Positions 4,268 through 31,818 are shown, counted from the first letter of the stretch. The stretch: 64,000 bases of DNA from a virus (IMGVR_UViG_3300037317_000025:1-64000); one strand, 5' to 3'. A program made the numbers and translations. Notes: generated by a model from the letters alone, not told the origin.

Positions 4268-4475
4268 ACGACGATTCTTCCCGCGCCATCGCCAGCGCCA
4301 GCCCAACCACCGCACCGACAATACCCCACAGCAGCCAGCTTCCCGCATTCGCCTTCGCCGCCTCGACCAGCCACACGAGCAGGCCGAACAGGATCGCGCC
4401 CCAGGTCGGCACCAGCAGGCCCAGGACGGCGGCGACAAAGATGGGCGCGAACAGCCAGTAGAGAATGCGCCCCAT
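4266..4475 (-). CDS. small membrane protein
   Basis: 69 aa, almost entirely hydrophobic. Confidence 0.6.
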   Translation of the reverse strand: MGRILYWLFAPIFVAAVLGLLVPTWGAILFGLLVWLVEAAKANAGSWLLWGIVGAVVGLALAMAREESS

Positions 4476-5401
4476 CAGCCTGCCCTCCGTGCTATCGCCG
4501 CCCGCGCCTTCGCCGCCTGCGCGTGGTTCTCCGGGTCGCCCAGGTCGAACGCATCCACGCGCAACCGATAGCGCATGCCGATGCCGCTGCGGTTGTCCTC
4601 TAGCGAGAGCACGCCCGACACGAACACCGGGTCGCCTGGGTGCAGGGCGCTGGCTTCGCGTGCCAGCCCGTCGTAGGTATAGACGGTGAACAGGCTGTCG
4701 CCGCTCACGATTGTCAGGATGGCAACGTCGCGCCCGTCGCTCGTCGTGTCCTGCCGGGGCGGGTGTTTCAGCGTGCCCGACAGCGACAGCACGTTCAACG
4801 TCTGCGACTGGCGGGCCTCCTGCCAGCGCCGCTCTAGCGTGAGCCAGTCGGTATCCAGGCGCACGAACGCCGTGTCGCCCCGGCGCTCGACGGACGGCTG
4901 CGGGTGGCCGGGTTCGATCACCACCTGATCGCCTGTATAGACCGTGATGAGCTTATGCACGATCTCGCCCGACAGGTGCAACCCGTAGCGCTGTCCGTCG
5001 CTCTCAATCGACAGCGTGCAGGTGTCCTGGGTGAAGTTGATATAAGCCACCGTGCCGATCAATGGGTCGTCGGTGGTATCCTGCGCCGCCTTGCGTGCCG
5101 TTGCGGGCGGTTGACTGACATAGCGAGCGTCTATGTAGAGCGTTGCCAGGTCGTCGCCTGTCTGCGGGTGCTGCCAGAGTTCCAGCCCCACGCGCCCTTC
5201 GACATAGACGACCTGCCCCTCGCGTATCCAGTCGGCCTCGTCCATCAGGTCGTCCATCAGGTCAAGCTGATAGACCTGCTCGACAGGCGAACCAGGGTCA
5301 ACGAGCTTGACCTTGACCGCCGGGGGTCGCCCACGGGCGCGGTAGGAACGCGGCTCTCTGGCAACCTGGCCGATGAACTGGAAGTGGTTTATGTCTGCCA
5401 C
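4475..5401 (-). CDS. single-stranded DNA-binding-like protein with tandem OB folds
   Basis: N-terminal INHFQFIGQVAREP...GQVVYVEGRV and C-terminal LNVLSLSGTLKHPP...LHPGDPVFVSGVL both resemble SSB. Confidence 0.6.
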   Translation of the reverse strand: MADINHFQFIGQVAREPRSYRARGRPPAVKVKLVDPGSPVEQVYQLDLMDDLMDEADWIREGQVVYVEGRVGLELWQHPQTGDDLATLYIDARYVSQPPATARKAAQDTTDDPLIGTVAYINFTQDTCTLSIESDGQRYGLHLSGEIVHKLITVYTGDQVVIEPGHPQPSVERRGDTAFVRLDTDWLTLERRWQEARQSQTLNVLSLSGTLKHPPRQDTTSDGRDVAILTIVSGDSLFTVYTYDGLAREASALHPGDPVFVSGVLSLEDNRSGIGMRYRLRVDAFDLGDPENHAQAAKARAAIARRAG

Positions 5402-19841: not shown

Positions 19842-20498
19842 CTAGCGTTGAGCGTCCTCCTCTAGACCAGGGCTGGATAGTGTGTCCTCGTCCTCGCTCA
19901 AGATTGGCGCAATCGCTTGCGCGTAGTCGAACGGCCTGATTTCTAGCGGTTGCCCGCCGGGGCCGCTGATCTCGTTTCGACTCGGCGCGTCCAGACCCAG
20001 CAACCGGGCGCGGCGCTCCATTGCCTTGATTGCCAGTTCCAGGTAGCGCACGTCGCCGTGCCCCCCGTGGGCAGTCTGCCGCATACGCTGCACGGCCATC
20101 TCGCCCGTGTCGCCGTCGCCTGTCAGGATGCGCTCGTAGTCGGTGCGCCCGTCCTTGCTCGCCTCCCATGCTCGCCACGCTTCGCCCGCCATCTGTTCAA
20201 GCTCCAGTAGTGTTGCGTCGTGCAGTTCGCCAATCGCCTCCTCGCGCTGCTTGCGCCACTCTTTCTTGAGTTCTGTCCAGTAATAATGGACAAGGTTGCG
20301 ATTGATCGGCTCATCGTCGGGGGTGAGGATGTTGTCCCTGAGGAATGCGTCCGTGAGCTGCGAGGCGATCTCTTCCTCGGTGTAGCGTTGCGCTTTGTAG
20401 CGCGCAACATCGCGGCGCAAACGTTCGCGCAGCGCTTTTGGAAATCGGGCTGCGAATTTTGGCACTCTGCCGGACATGTGAGCTTTCTTGCGTTCCAT
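19842..20498 (-). CDS. putative terminase small subunit
   Basis: HTH-like N-terminus; MERRARLLGLDAP..EISGPGGQP C-terminal motif; preceded by the late promoter motif. Confidence 0.55.
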   Translation of the reverse strand: MERKKAHMSGRVPKFAARFPKALRERLRRDVARYKAQRYTEEEIASQLTDAFLRDNILTPDDEPINRNLVHYYWTELKKEWRKQREEAIGELHDATLLELEQMAGEAWRAWEASKDGRTDYERILTGDGDTGEMAVQRMRQTAHGGHGDVRYLELAIKAMERRARLLGLDAPSRNEISGPGGQPLEIRPFDYAQAIAPILSEDEDTLSSPGLEEDAQR

Positions 20499-20510
20499 CG
20501 CTGCGATTAC

Positions 20511-20535
20511 GCCAATATCTACGGGTATTATAGCA
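20511..20535 (-). promoter_or_regulatory. putative late promoter motif, copy 3
   Basis: TGCTATAATACCCGTAGATATTGGC. Confidence 0.65.
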
Positions 20536-20540
20536 TAATG

Positions 20541-20566
20541 AAAAAAAAGACTGCCCGAAAGCAGCC
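20541..20566 (-). terminator. intrinsic terminator ending the CRISPR transcript
   Basis: GGCTGC-TTTCGG-GCAGTC-TTTTTTTT on the minus strand, right after the truncated trailer repeat. Confidence 0.75.
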
Positions 20567-20591
20567 ATTTGTCCTCAACTCAACTCACCTT

Positions 20592-21125
20592 ACCGCGCAT
20601 TGACCATTGCAACGCCAGTGCAGCCCAGGACATCGGCGCTCATCATCCTCTTGCACCCTGCTCAACCGCGCGTTGACCATTGCAACTTAGTCCTGGCGGC
20701 GGGTGGTACAGTTGTACCATTGCCCTTGCACCCTGCTCAACCGCGCATTGACCATTGCAACGTCGGGCTGTGACCTCATAGCGTTGCGTGTACTTGTTCT
20801 TGCACCCTGCTCAACCGCGCATTGACCATTGCAACAACAATGAAGGCGCTGCTGCAGGAGCACGACGAGCTTGCACCCTGCTCAACCGCGCATTGACCGT
20901 TGCAACGTGATGAGTTCCAGTCCTGGCTGATCCTCATTATACTTGCACCCTGCTCAACCGCGCATTGACCATTGCAACTGCTGCTGCTGATATACACAGG
21001 CTTGCCCAGGAAGCTCTTGCACCCTACTCAACCGCGTGTTGACCATTGCAACATATGTTTGACGATTGCAACGATGCTCACAACTCTCCTTGCACCCTGC
21101 TCAACCGCGCATTGACCATTGCAAC
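20592..21125 (-). CRISPR. CRISPR array: 7 full 37-bp repeats + 1 truncated trailer repeat, 7 spacers (34-38 bp)
   Basis: Repeat GTTGCAATGGTCAATGCGCGGTTGAGCAGGGTGCAAG (minus strand) at 21089-21125, 21016-21052, 20942-20978, 20870-20906, 20799-20835, 20725-20761, 20650-20686; 22-bp remnant at 20592-20613; spacers are unique. Confidence 0.97.
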
Positions 21126-22591
21126 TCGTCAAACATATGTAGTTGATACAGAGTCGAGTGTTCAGATGTGTTCTGCACATCAGTCGGGGATGGCACCCCG
21201 CGCTCACTCGTTGAGGCGTGCGCCTCTTCGCAGTTCACAGGCGTACTAGCAGACCGTTCCGCCTCCCTGCGCACGTCACTTGGGGCATTGCCCCGCGCAA
21301 CCTGCCCGTTGCACACGGGTGTCTCTGGATAGTGTTTCGCGTTCGCTCGGTTGCCAATATTCCGAGCGGCGTTGATGTCTCTATCGTGTTCAGTTCCGCA
21401 CTCACCGCACTTCCAGGCGCGGGTGCGAAGCTCAATCTTGCGCGGCGATTTCACCCCGCAGGCGCTACAGGCTTGCGTGGTGTTGGCTGCGTCCACTTCG
21501 TAGTATGCGCGACCTGCCGCTTCGGCCTTCTCTTTGATCTTCTGGCGCAACTTGCCAGGGGCGGCGCTTTGCATCGACTTGTTGAGCGAGCGCTTCAGCT
21601 TGCGCCCCCGGTGCTTGTAGCGCTTGCCATTCTTGCGCTTGGCTTTGGTCATGTGCGCAAAGTTGATGTCCTCGACGCCAATGGTGTCAGCCGTGTCCAC
21701 AATGCGCTTTGCAATGTAGTGCTGCTGGTGATCGCGCTTGCGCGTGGTCTTCTGATGGAGCTTTGCAATACGCGCCCGCCGCCGCTTCGTGCGGTTGCTG
21801 TTCGGATCGGCCTTCTTGCCCGCGCCCCTGGTTTTGCGCTTCGGTGCGACCAGGCGCTCCAGGACACGCTTGCGTTTCTCTAGCTTACGGATGCTATCAT
21901 CCTGGCTATAGGTGCGCCCATCCGACAGCGCGGCGACATCCTGCGTGTCGCCACGGTGCTTGCAGTTCAGGTCAACGCCTACCGTCTTGCCTGTCTCTGG
22001 CAACGGTTCCGGCTCTGGCACCTCGCAGCTAAACGAGATATACCAGTCGTTTTTCACGCGAGTGATATGCACCTGCTTGATAACCGCGTCGTCTGGTATG
22101 GCACGGTGCATGCGCACGCGCAAGTGTCCAAGTTTGCCCGCGCCCGCCAGTTGCCAGTAGGCATAGCGGCGGCTCTCTCCGACAATTCGCGTCCCTCGCT
22201 CGGAGCCGCGAAACGCCAGACCCAAATCAGCAGGCCGCTCCGCCCAGCGCGGATTGCCTGCCGGAAACCGCTTCGCCTTGATGTTGCGAAACATATTTTT
22301 ATAGGCAGTATCAACGCGCCCACTGATGCCAAAGTTGCCGCCCATCGTGTCAGCAGGCACATCGCGCCAGTGGACTATGGTTGCCCGCATGCGCGTGATG
22401 AACTTCCCCTGCGTGCCAGATGTGACCGTCGGCACATACCGCGCCTGCTGTTGCTTCAGCCGGTACGCATCGCGACGCTGCTGGATAAGCACGCGCTGCA
22501 CTTCCCAACACGCCTGCTGCCACGCCTCAAGCGTGCGCTGCTGGTCTGCGTTCGGATAGAGCCGGTATTTGTATGAGCGTGCTATAGTCAT
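21101..22591 (-). CDS. tnpB: CRISPR-associated TnpB-like/compact type V (Cas12-like) RNA-guided nuclease, ~496 aa
   Basis: RSYKYRLYPNADQ N-terminus; RuvC-I VGVDLN, RuvC-II IGVEDIN, Zn ribbon CSAC...CGEC, RuvC-III HDRDINAARNI; stop codon lies inside CRISPR repeat 1. Confidence 0.88.
   Translation of the reverse strand: MTIARSYKYRLYPNADQQRTLEAWQQACWEVQRVLIQQRRDAYRLKQQQARYVPTVTSGTQGKFITRMRATIVHWRDVPADTMGGNFGISGRVDTAYKNMFRNIKAKRFPAGNPRWAERPADLGLAFRGSERGTRIVGESRRYAYWQLAGAGKLGHLRVRMHRAIPDDAVIKQVHITRVKNDWYISFSCEVPEPEPLPETGKTVGVDLNCKHRGDTQDVAALSDGRTYSQDDSIRKLEKRKRVLERLVAPKRKTRGAGKKADPNSNRTKRRRARIAKLHQKTTRKRDHQQHYIAKRIVDTADTIGVEDINFAHMTKAKRKNGKRYKHRGRKLKRSLNKSMQSAAPGKLRQKIKEKAEAAGRAYYEVDAANTTQACSACGVKSPRKIELRTRAWKCGECGTEHDRDINAARNIGNRANAKHYPETPVCNGQVARGNAPSDVRREAERSASTPVNCEEAHASTSERGVPSPTDVQNTSEHSTLYQLHMFDELQWSMRG
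21126..21340 (-). ncRNA. putative omega/tracr-like scaffold RNA overlapping the effector's 3' coding tail
   Basis: Several hairpins; partial anti-repeat GCACGCCTCAAC (21221-21210); repeat-3'-like TGAGCGCGGGGTGCCA (21206-21191); boundaries uncertain. Confidence 0.5.
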
Positions 22592-22597
22592 ATAATG

Positions 22598-22636
22598 ATT
22601 ATAGCACATTGCACACATAGTTGCAAGTGCTATAAT
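22598..22636. promoter_or_regulatory. overlapping divergent sigma70 promoters forming an imperfect palindrome
   Basis: Minus: TTGCAA-17-TATAAT, 6 nt before ATG 22591; plus: TTGCAC-16-TATAAT; ATTATAGCAC...GTGCTATAAT inverted arms. Confidence 0.75.
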
Positions 22637-22672
22637 AGGGATAGCACAAACAAGATACAAGGTGAGGTTGAC

Positions 22673-22900
22673 ATGGTAAGATGGGCACTCAAGGAGATCG
22701 CAGAGCCGGAGCGCTGGTCGGCGCGGCGGTTGGCAAAAGAGTCGGGGTTGTCGTATAGTGCAGTGTATTACATCTGGGCGAATAAAACGCGCCGGGTGGA
22801 TTTCGATACGCTTGAGAAGCTCTGCCGAATACTCAAGGTCGGGCCGGGTGATTTGATTGTCTGCGACGAACCACAAAACACCACAACTCCGCATCCCTAG
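22673..22900 (+). CDS. Cro/C1-type HTH transcriptional regulator
   Basis: SARRLAKESGLSYSAVYYIWANKTRRVDFDTLEKLCRIL..GDLI; GAGGT RBS. Confidence 0.85.
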   Translation: MVRWALKEIAEPERWSARRLAKESGLSYSAVYYIWANKTRRVDFDTLEKLCRILKVGPGDLIVCDEPQNTTTPHP

Positions 22901-31437: not shown

Positions 31438-31818
31438 TCACTCAACATCTCGATACTCCTCTAATTCTTGCCGGAGATCATCCGGCAACTGATACATATC
31501 ACTCAACCACACCTCATTGGCAACGCGATACACCAGCGACCGCAGGCGTGCGTTCTCCTGCCACACGTCCGGGCCGTCGTCCGTCGTGCGCGGGCCAGTG
31601 CCGATGTGGTCATCCAACGCCTGCCGCAGCGCGCCCATCGCGTGCGGTACGTCGCCCTGAATATCGACAGCGCAGCGATAGCGATCCGCCGCGTGTACCA
31701 CCGCCTGCATTGCCCGCACCTCGTAGATGAGTGTTAGCAGCATCGCCGCCGTCTCGCGGTTGAGCAGGGCGTTCGCTCGCCGCTCGTAGCCGTTGAGTTG
31801 TGTGTTGGGGATTGGCAT
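31438..31818 (-). CDS. hypothetical protein
   Basis: 126-aa ORF, GGAGG RBS. Confidence 0.55.
   Translation of the reverse strand: MPIPNTQLNGYERRANALLNRETAAMLLTLIYEVRAMQAVVHAADRYRCAVDIQGDVPHAMGALRQALDDHIGTGPRTTDDGPDVWQENARLRSLVYRVANEVWLSDMYQLPDDLRQELEEYRDVE

Follow-up and report, generated by a model that had tools for sequence, protein, structure and literature searches.

The stretch of DNA analysed here, hereafter the window (IMGVR_UViG_3300037317_000025:1-64000; 64,000 nucleotides (nt)), comes from an IMG/VR phage record of 75 kb. Its minus strand carries a gene for a TnpB-fold effector nuclease that runs directly into a CRISPR array, and the subject of this analysis is the 3' coding tail of that gene, which an earlier note on the sequence had proposed to double as an RNA scaffold. 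The effector open reading frame (ORF; P0002; 21101-22591, minus strand) specifies 496 amino acids (aa). Approximately aa 1-416 (21344-22591) make up the TnpB-fold core, with the RuvC residues D207, E307 and D405 and a CxxC...CxxC zinc finger, and are followed by the coding tail, whose ~75 codons at 21118-21343 constitute the proposed scaffold. The stop codon of the effector (21103-21101) falls within repeat 1 of the CRISPR array (20577-21125, minus strand), which comprises 8 repeats of 37 nt and 7 spacers. A sigma-70-like promoter (22598-22626, minus strand; TTGCAA-17-TATAAT with an additional TG) is located just 5' of the effector start codon and is the sole promoter-like site within 20400-22750, and an intrinsic terminator (20541-20566, minus strand), consisting of a 7-bp stem followed by U8, closes the effector-array unit. 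Since promoter and terminator bracket both gene and array, and since the degenerate repeat (20577-20613) is the array repeat most distant from the effector, the sequence supports a single transcription unit on the minus strand that covers both.

The effector is a member of the guided_TnpB family, as it matched the profile NF040570 over its full length and above the curated cut-off (205.1 bits versus 100; aa 7-415 on profile positions 1-389 of 389). Across 27 clade members the RuvC residues D207, E307 and D405 as well as the cysteines C375, C378, C395 and C398 were invariant or nearly so, and both the catalytic triad and the zinc finger are intact. Using AlphaFold2, we obtained a pLDDT score (predicted local distance difference test) of ~90 for aa 1-426 and of ~30 for aa 427-496, and this latter part of the tail is predicted to be disordered. 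The best Foldseek match of the predicted fold was the TnpB of ISDra2 (8h1j; template-modelling (TM) score 0.82), followed by ISFba1 TnpB, Cas12f and LaTranC. By sequence, the effector clade is small and well separated, with ~15 cluster representatives at E <= 1e-49 and the next matches at 1e-40. The comparison of this clade at the DNA level covers the window and one second locus, L084, while ~25 other members were compared as proteins.

The coding tail and its putative anti-repeat

L084 is a locus on an 83-kb phage contig that encodes an effector with 39% identity to the window protein and that carries its own mini-array of 37-nt repeats. Within the coding tail of this effector we found an anti-repeat (4446-4489) that is a nearly full-length complement of the L084 repeat, with 28 bp and -31.9 kcal/mol compared with -20.3 +/- 2.5 kcal/mol for shuffled sequences, none of which (0 of 500) was as good. 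This anti-repeat starts directly 3' of the hairpin GGUGGUG-AGAAA-CACCGCC (4428-4446). The equivalent position in the window, 3' of the homologous hairpin, is occupied by a putative anti-repeat at 21154-21118 (minus strand; ACUCUGU-A-UCAACU-ACAUAUGUU-UGAC-GA-GUUGCAAU), which pairs colinearly with repeat positions 1-33 through 29 base pairs (-29.0 versus -17.8 +/- 3.6 kcal/mol for shuffles; P = 0.0045). Its last 8 nt, the nearly palindromic GUUGCAAU, belong to repeat 1, of which they are the first 8 nt. In both loci, 4-5 nt before the spacer stay unpaired (GCAAG or AAAG).

The repeats of the two loci differ at 20 of their 37 positions. Among the 24 repeat positions that are paired in both loci, 11 carry changes in both partners and 5 in one partner only, so that the co-variation across homologous loci that the earlier note had named as a check on its idea took the form of 11 compensatory anti-repeat:repeat pairs between window and L084. 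Indeed, the non-cognate combinations of anti-repeat and repeat reached -17.6 and -19.9 kcal/mol versus -29.0 and -31.9 kcal/mol for the cognate ones, and are therefore 10-14 kcal/mol weaker. The 3' end of the L084 anti-repeat can pair with GUUGCG, the conserved start of the repeat, and its translation is the peptide 'VRNS' that is found in the tails of many relatives. We also observed that a segment between the anti-repeat and repeat 1 of L084 (4517-4552) has a repeat-like start (GUUGCGGGACAAAUG...) and a run of six U residues and encodes the C-terminus QMSFFDHV; this segment may represent a degenerate 'repeat 0', or else a stretch that pairs in a hairpin with the anti-repeat's 3' end.

Upstream of the anti-repeat, the window tail contains at least five hairpins, and the hairpin plan of the L084 tail is the same. 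The earlier note had remarked that the codons following the peptide DRDINAARNI are rich in hairpins and not RuvC-like, and this description held: the stretch comprises 84 codons, the NF040570 match ends at approximately aa 415 of 496, and three of the hairpins are supported by comparison between the loci. The first of these, CCCGU-GUGCA-ACGGG (21305-21319), has the counterpart CCUAC-GUUCA-GUGGG in L084 (4318-4332), with equal stem and loop lengths and with three pairs that differ yet remain paired. For the second, GAGGC-GCAC-GCCUC (21213-21226), the L084 tail carries GUGGU-UCA-ACCAC (4414-4426), in which two pairs have changed on both sides. The third, GAUGUG-CAGAA-CACAUC (21164-21182), is the best-supported RNA helix of the tail and aligns in both protein and RNA with the hairpin GGUGGUG-AGAAA-CACCGCC of L084 mentioned above. 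In addition, fold prediction alone yielded the hairpin GGGGC-AAU-GCCCC (21282-21294) with an outer GUUGC/GUGAC stem (~21301-21275), which is plausibly homologous to a two-tier hairpin of L084 (4347-4376). The hairpin GGGG-UGCCAU-CCCC (21186-21199), which overlaps 21191-21206, is present in the window only, as no counterpart was found in L084.

Further evidence comes from strain variants, for which we used contigs of a tidal-flat metagenome. In two other haplotypes, the sequence at 21182-21164 reads UUUGCCG-CAGAA-CGGUGAA and UUCAUCG-CAGAA-CGGUGAA, respectively, meaning that both arms of the hairpin have been rewritten with the loop CAGAA intact. These changes replace four amino acids, and because G.U wobble pairs are used, the pairing survives only on the minus-strand RNA. 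The translation of one reconstructed haplotype is identical to P0125, an independent protein, and this validates the reconstruction. Among the best-supported variants listed, the core had 20 synonymous and 4 non-synonymous changes, and the tail had 2 synonymous and 2 non-synonymous changes plus the four-residue block. All of the listed tail variants are located in loops or a bulge, change a G-C pair to G.U, or are compensatory. On the minus-strand RNA, 21188 G>A turns a G-C pair of the hairpin 21186-21199 into G.U; 21194 C>T lies in the loop of the same hairpin and 21218 G>T in that of the hairpin 21213-21226; and the variant at 21147 concerns the bulged A of the anti-repeat.

Given these data, we consider it likely, with a probability of roughly 70%, that the 3' coding tail (~21343-21118, minus strand) doubles as a scaffold resembling a tracrRNA (trans-activating CRISPR RNA) or omega RNA for a phage-encoded, CRISPR-associated TnpB-fold nuclease. 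The L084 anti-repeat, the 11 compensatory pairs and the compensatory strain variants of the hairpin, all of them sequence comparisons, support this reading in outline. To that extent the proposal of the earlier note has stood, whereas its details have not, as the anti-repeat would lie at 21154-21118 and not at 21221-21210.

In such a system, a single transcript would start from the promoter (22626-22598), run through the gene and the 8-repeat array and end at the terminator (20566-20541). The RNA of the tail would fold into its hairpins, of which there are at least five, and end in the anti-repeat (21154-21118); this would pair with almost all of the 37-nt repeat and leave GCAAG unpaired beside the spacer. 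The effector would bind the duplex of scaffold and CRISPR RNA (crRNA) and cut matching DNA via its intact RuvC site. As the anti-repeat is fused to repeat 1 via the palindrome GUUGCAA(Y), repeat 1 and spacer 1 would fold back in cis like a single guide, and repeats 2-8 would pair in trans. A stable RNA, its processing, its binding by the effector and the cleavage of DNA are the steps that we infer for this nuclease.

Competing explanations of the tail

Several observations weigh against a scaffold encoded in the tail. Without the 8 nt that are common to repeat 1, the window anti-repeat reaches -20.1 kcal/mol (P = 0.09), and judged by energy alone, binding to the repeat is equally good for 15% of the sequence windows of this GC-rich phage. 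The case for the window anti-repeat therefore rests on positional homology and co-variation, and the co-variation consists of one two-locus comparison plus the strain variants, the figures for which refer to the best-supported variants listed, with 61 further ones outside them. The fold of the whole tail is not unusually stable (z = -1.43), and a search of Rfam gave no relevant family, its sole match being a sub-threshold hit to mir-190 that is due to an inverted repeat. Lastly, the tail may also act as a protein, since its reading frame is open in every haplotype and a QLxLF-like motif forms the end of many relatives.

It is conceivable, though in our view improbable, that the effector works with crRNA only and that the complementarity between tail and repeat is either the by-product of an array rearrangement between the palindromic GUUGCAA ends or serves the cis-regulation of array read-through or processing. 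The last 8 nt of the anti-repeat, common to repeat 1, would fit such an explanation, and so would the nature of spacer 1 (21053-21088, minus strand). In antisense, this spacer reproduces the tail end plus anti-repeat found in a close relative and, in part, the window's own tail end; its plus strand reads MFDDCNDAHNS, compared with MFDGCNDARNS in P0125. Folded alone, anti-repeat and repeat 1 form a fold-back with an 11-nt loop that is followed by spacer 1, an arrangement that is predicted to resemble an omega-RNA-like single guide. With spacer 1 included, however, a rival 21-bp stem forms (21053-21088 with 21140-21119) that encloses repeat 1, since the spacer repeats the tail end in inverted orientation. 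Moreover, contigs in two sequencing runs join 21051 to 21126, from which it follows that array variants without the first repeat-spacer unit co-exist.

The fusion of anti-repeat and repeat 1 itself looks like a secondary deletion between the GUUGCAA of the anti-repeat end and that of repeat 1 and not like an ancestral state, given that 78 nt separate anti-repeat and repeat 1 in L084 and that P0125, which is 95% identical to the window protein, contains extra coding sequence at this place: after QLHMFD it runs on with GCNDARNS..., the peptide found on the opposite strand of the window's spacer 1. On this reading, the fusion would not be the retained ancestral single-guide RNA, a snapshot of an omega RNA splitting in two, that the earlier note had suggested. 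Spacer 1 may have been taken from a sibling phage or may have been left by a rearrangement at the palindrome GUUGCAA. What speaks against a crRNA-only effector is the anti-repeat of L084, which is independent and unfused, lies 78 nt from repeat 1 and is complementary to a repeat that differs from the window's at 20 of 37 positions. The upstream hairpins of the tail are conserved as well, and the TnpB-fold enzymes that have been studied use a long scaffold RNA, either omega RNA or tracrRNA (PMC10097598, PMC12216341).

Equally unlikely, in our estimation, is that the tail functions solely at the protein level, namely as a disordered linker with a QLxLF-like docking motif, with the region upstream of the array being a CRISPR leader and the RNA features being incidental. 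The consensus for binding to the beta clamp is QL[SD]LF or QLxLxL in a disordered terminus. A motif of the form Q-[LM]-x-[LF]-[FD]-[DEL], which resembles those by which bacterial proteins bind the clamp, is found 0-8 residues from the stop in approximately 12 of the 16 long-tailed relatives (QLSLFD, QLELFE, QMSFFD, QLSLDL), and the carriers include P0010, P0014, P0017, P0018, P0124, P0127 and the A2 sub-clade. The variable distance of the motif from motifs further upstream, its conservative substitutions and the reading frame kept open in all haplotypes favour a role of the peptide. On the other hand, amino acids in the tail are freely replaced while the RNA pairing stays, and the co-variation of anti-repeat and repeat between the loci would be left without explanation. 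In addition, the codons of the window motif QLHMFD (21126-21146) lie inside the anti-repeat, and P0003 and P0125, which are closest to the window protein, have the motif internally and not at the C-terminus. The Q-L-x-L-F-like endings may be either a real docking motif on an RNA-guided nuclease or a by-product of constraints on RNA and DNA.

The specific model of the earlier note, in which GCACGCCTCAAC (minus strand 21221-21210) is the anti-repeat, TGAGCGCGGGGTGCCA (minus strand 21206-21191) is the repeat-like 3' end of an omega RNA and the sequence after GGGGTGCCA may act as a cis guide, is the least tenable and very probably wrong: letters and coordinates are exact and ~11 pairs with the repeat can be drawn, but neither the pairing (-15.8 versus -15.7 +/- 2.9 kcal/mol for shuffles, P = 0.48; 2588 of 10553 phage windows, or 25%, bind the 3' end of the repeat equally well or better) nor the likeness to the repeat (local alignment score 13 versus a shuffle mean of 14.0, P = 0.71; matched by 964 of 1174 phage windows of 215 nt, or 82%) exceeds chance. 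Instead, 21221-21210 is one arm plus the loop of the hairpin GAGGC-GCAC-GCCUC, which is kept with compensatory changes in L084, 21206-21191 overlaps the hairpin that is not found there, and the stretch after GGGGTGCCA, for which nothing suggests a guide, holds the conserved hairpin and the homologous anti-repeat.

Other candidates for repeat-related elements in the tail fared no better. A sense-strand local alignment between tail and repeat was best at 21311-21287 (score 19, P = 0.043), which we do not regard as meaningful. We rejected an anti-repeat at 21244-21227 suggested by the minimum free energy (-23.7 kcal/mol), as ~1% of phage windows were equal and cross-locus controls were as strong. 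A search of the scaffolds for a second, guide-proximal anti-repeat yielded nothing above the cross-controls.

Relationship to Cas12n, TnpB and TranC

The window effector represents a new clade whose arrangement is already known, since the tail-overlapping tracrRNA of Cas12n, the omega RNA at the 3' end of TnpB genes and the arrays of TranC have all been published. In Cas12n, the tracrRNA overlaps the 3' end of the ORF that encodes a disordered C-terminal tail (PMC12216341), and several stem-loops of the guide RNA are followed by a stem of anti-repeat and repeat, with a few bases left unpaired ahead of the spacer (PMC12216341; bioRxiv 10.64898/2026.03.27.714800). The putative guide of the window matches this layout and, judging from the position of the anti-repeat and the pLDDT of ~30, likewise has its putative tracrRNA part in a disordered coding tail. 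RdCas12n (9J09; type V-N, formerly V-U4/C2c9) was also the best natural sequence match in the PDB, with 93.6 bits in the RuvC half only (aa 160-418), and the PADLOC profile Cas12u4, for which there is no curated cut-off, scored 143.5 bits with an alignment reaching into the tail, up to aa 463. In contrast, the N-terminal half of the effector does not match Cas12n and the predicted fold of the effector is nearest to plain TnpB; the core has ~415 aa with no sign of expanded REC or WED domains; the locus is carried by a phage; and the window anti-repeat is fused to repeat 1, with the stop codon inside the repeat.

TnpB genes give rise to their omega RNA at the 3' end (PMC10097598, PMC8612924). 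With TnpB, as exemplified by ISDra2 (8H1J/8EXA), the window has in common the fold, the full-length guided_TnpB match and a putative scaffold overlapping the 3' end of the gene, and the predicted fold-back on repeat 1, with spacer 1 behind it, looks like an uninterrupted omega RNA that carries its guide at the 3' end. It differs in that guides would come from a multi-spacer array, in that neither tnpA nor transposon ends were seen near the effector, and in that the score for the IS200/IS605 TnpB profile NF038281 (141.5 bits) was below the cut-off of 425. The genes cas1, cas2 and cas4 were likewise not found near the effector locus, whose neighbours are a divergent Cro/C1-type helix-turn-helix gene, a terminase large subunit gene and a phage methylase-like gene.

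For TnpB-like effectors that are accompanied by arrays, Jin et al. (Cell 2025, doi 10.1016/j.cell.2025.09.004) use the name TranC, and the splitting of right-end RNA (reRNA) into tracrRNA and crRNA has been proposed there as the origin of type V systems. The window shows the same association of a TnpB-like effector directly with a short array, as does L084, with no adaptation genes and with a putative tracrRNA-like part plus crRNA, and phage-borne examples such as CauTranC9 exist among TranC too. TranC systems employ split guides as well as single, reRNA-like ones; in the window, a cis fold-back of the anti-repeat on repeat 1 is predicted. However, sequence similarity to LaTranC (9JFO/9JFQ), the TranC reference used for comparison, is weak (41 bits), and the window clade has an unstructured and putatively tracrRNA-bearing tail, which novel subtypes in a 2026 survey of several TranC clades are reported to lack (bioRxiv 10.64898/2026.03.27.714800). 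The C2c8 (type V-U2) profile NF038192 aligned in the RuvC half only (aa 152-381), with 112.8 bits far below its cut-off of 350, and the Cas12f2 profile NF049972 gave 65.4 bits versus a cut-off of 450. The PADLOC profile Cas12u2 scored 149 bits with partial similarity in the RuvC half.

If confirmed, the scaffold reading would provide a concrete guide-RNA design (scaffold ~21340-21118, repeat and spacer) for a very compact phage nuclease with a core of ~415 aa. It would also add a further, independent lineage with a helper RNA lodged within the coding tail of the effector, and would support a repeated origin of type V systems from TnpB through the splitting of omega RNA.

Scans of metagenome and genome contigs with the clade alignment returned only distant TnpBs with 25-31% identity, protein-seeded scans of viral contigs led to the L084 contig or to no match, and a scan of viral contigs for the window repeat gave no match. 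Clade members were likewise absent from 401 genomes of the phylum and 169 genomes of the class of the Chloroflexia metagenome-assembled genome behind L166.

Spacers and possible exchange of effector cassettes

In crRNA sense, the spacer at 20762-20798 (minus strand) encodes NKYTQRYEVTAR, which is an exact 12-residue match to five effectors of a sister sub-clade (P0013, P0016, P0019, P0020 and P0024). Its protospacer is present on metagenome contigs of the same samples, within a P0016-like coding sequence and with the 5' flank ...GTATCCT, the one protospacer flank available for comparison with the A-rich 5' protospacer-adjacent motif of Cas12n. It seems that the phage is directed against a competing allele of its own cassette, and the spacer hints that related phages aim their cassettes at each other's cassettes. 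At least one spacer, and probably spacer 1 as well, matches competing forms of the effector cassette, which suggests that the system is used in conflict between related phages. The full combination, in which the same ~230 nt would be read twice, as tracrRNA scaffold and as beta-clamp-docking tail, and in which a natural cis single guide would operate beside trans crRNAs mainly against rival cassette alleles, is a speculative picture that we would not expect to hold in its entirety.

The 5' part of the gene is informative about the cassettes, too. P0013, which belongs to the sister sub-clade, has an N-terminus of ~33 aa and an upstream in-frame peptide that are identical to those of the window (22479-22632) and then becomes divergent. 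Over 22479-22555, metagenome depth climbs more than 10-fold. This suggests that related phages exchange effector cassettes behind one common promoter and 5' end.

Searches with the window spacers against the phage collection gave chance-level matches only, and the L084 spacers had no match to clade effectors. A search for a relative's tail end returned exact matches of 21 nt to the complement of spacer 1 in two related phage contigs, L250 (4862-4882) and L251 (10550-10570), which we discarded, as they lie in an unrelated gene and are at about chance level. Frame 1 of the spacer at 20979-21015, in crRNA sense, reads ASWASLCISAAA, of which only WASLCI is common to the start of the P0003/P0004 tails (P~0.06). 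Finally, 15 nt of the repeat core (CGCGGTTGAGCAGGG) recur exactly at 31755-31769 on the plus strand, 10 kb from the array, where 0.02 matches would be expected by chance with up to one mismatch allowed. This copy lies within a minus-strand ORF (31438-31818; 126 aa, no Pfam match), the mRNA of which would be perfectly complementary to the crRNA repeat over 15 nt.

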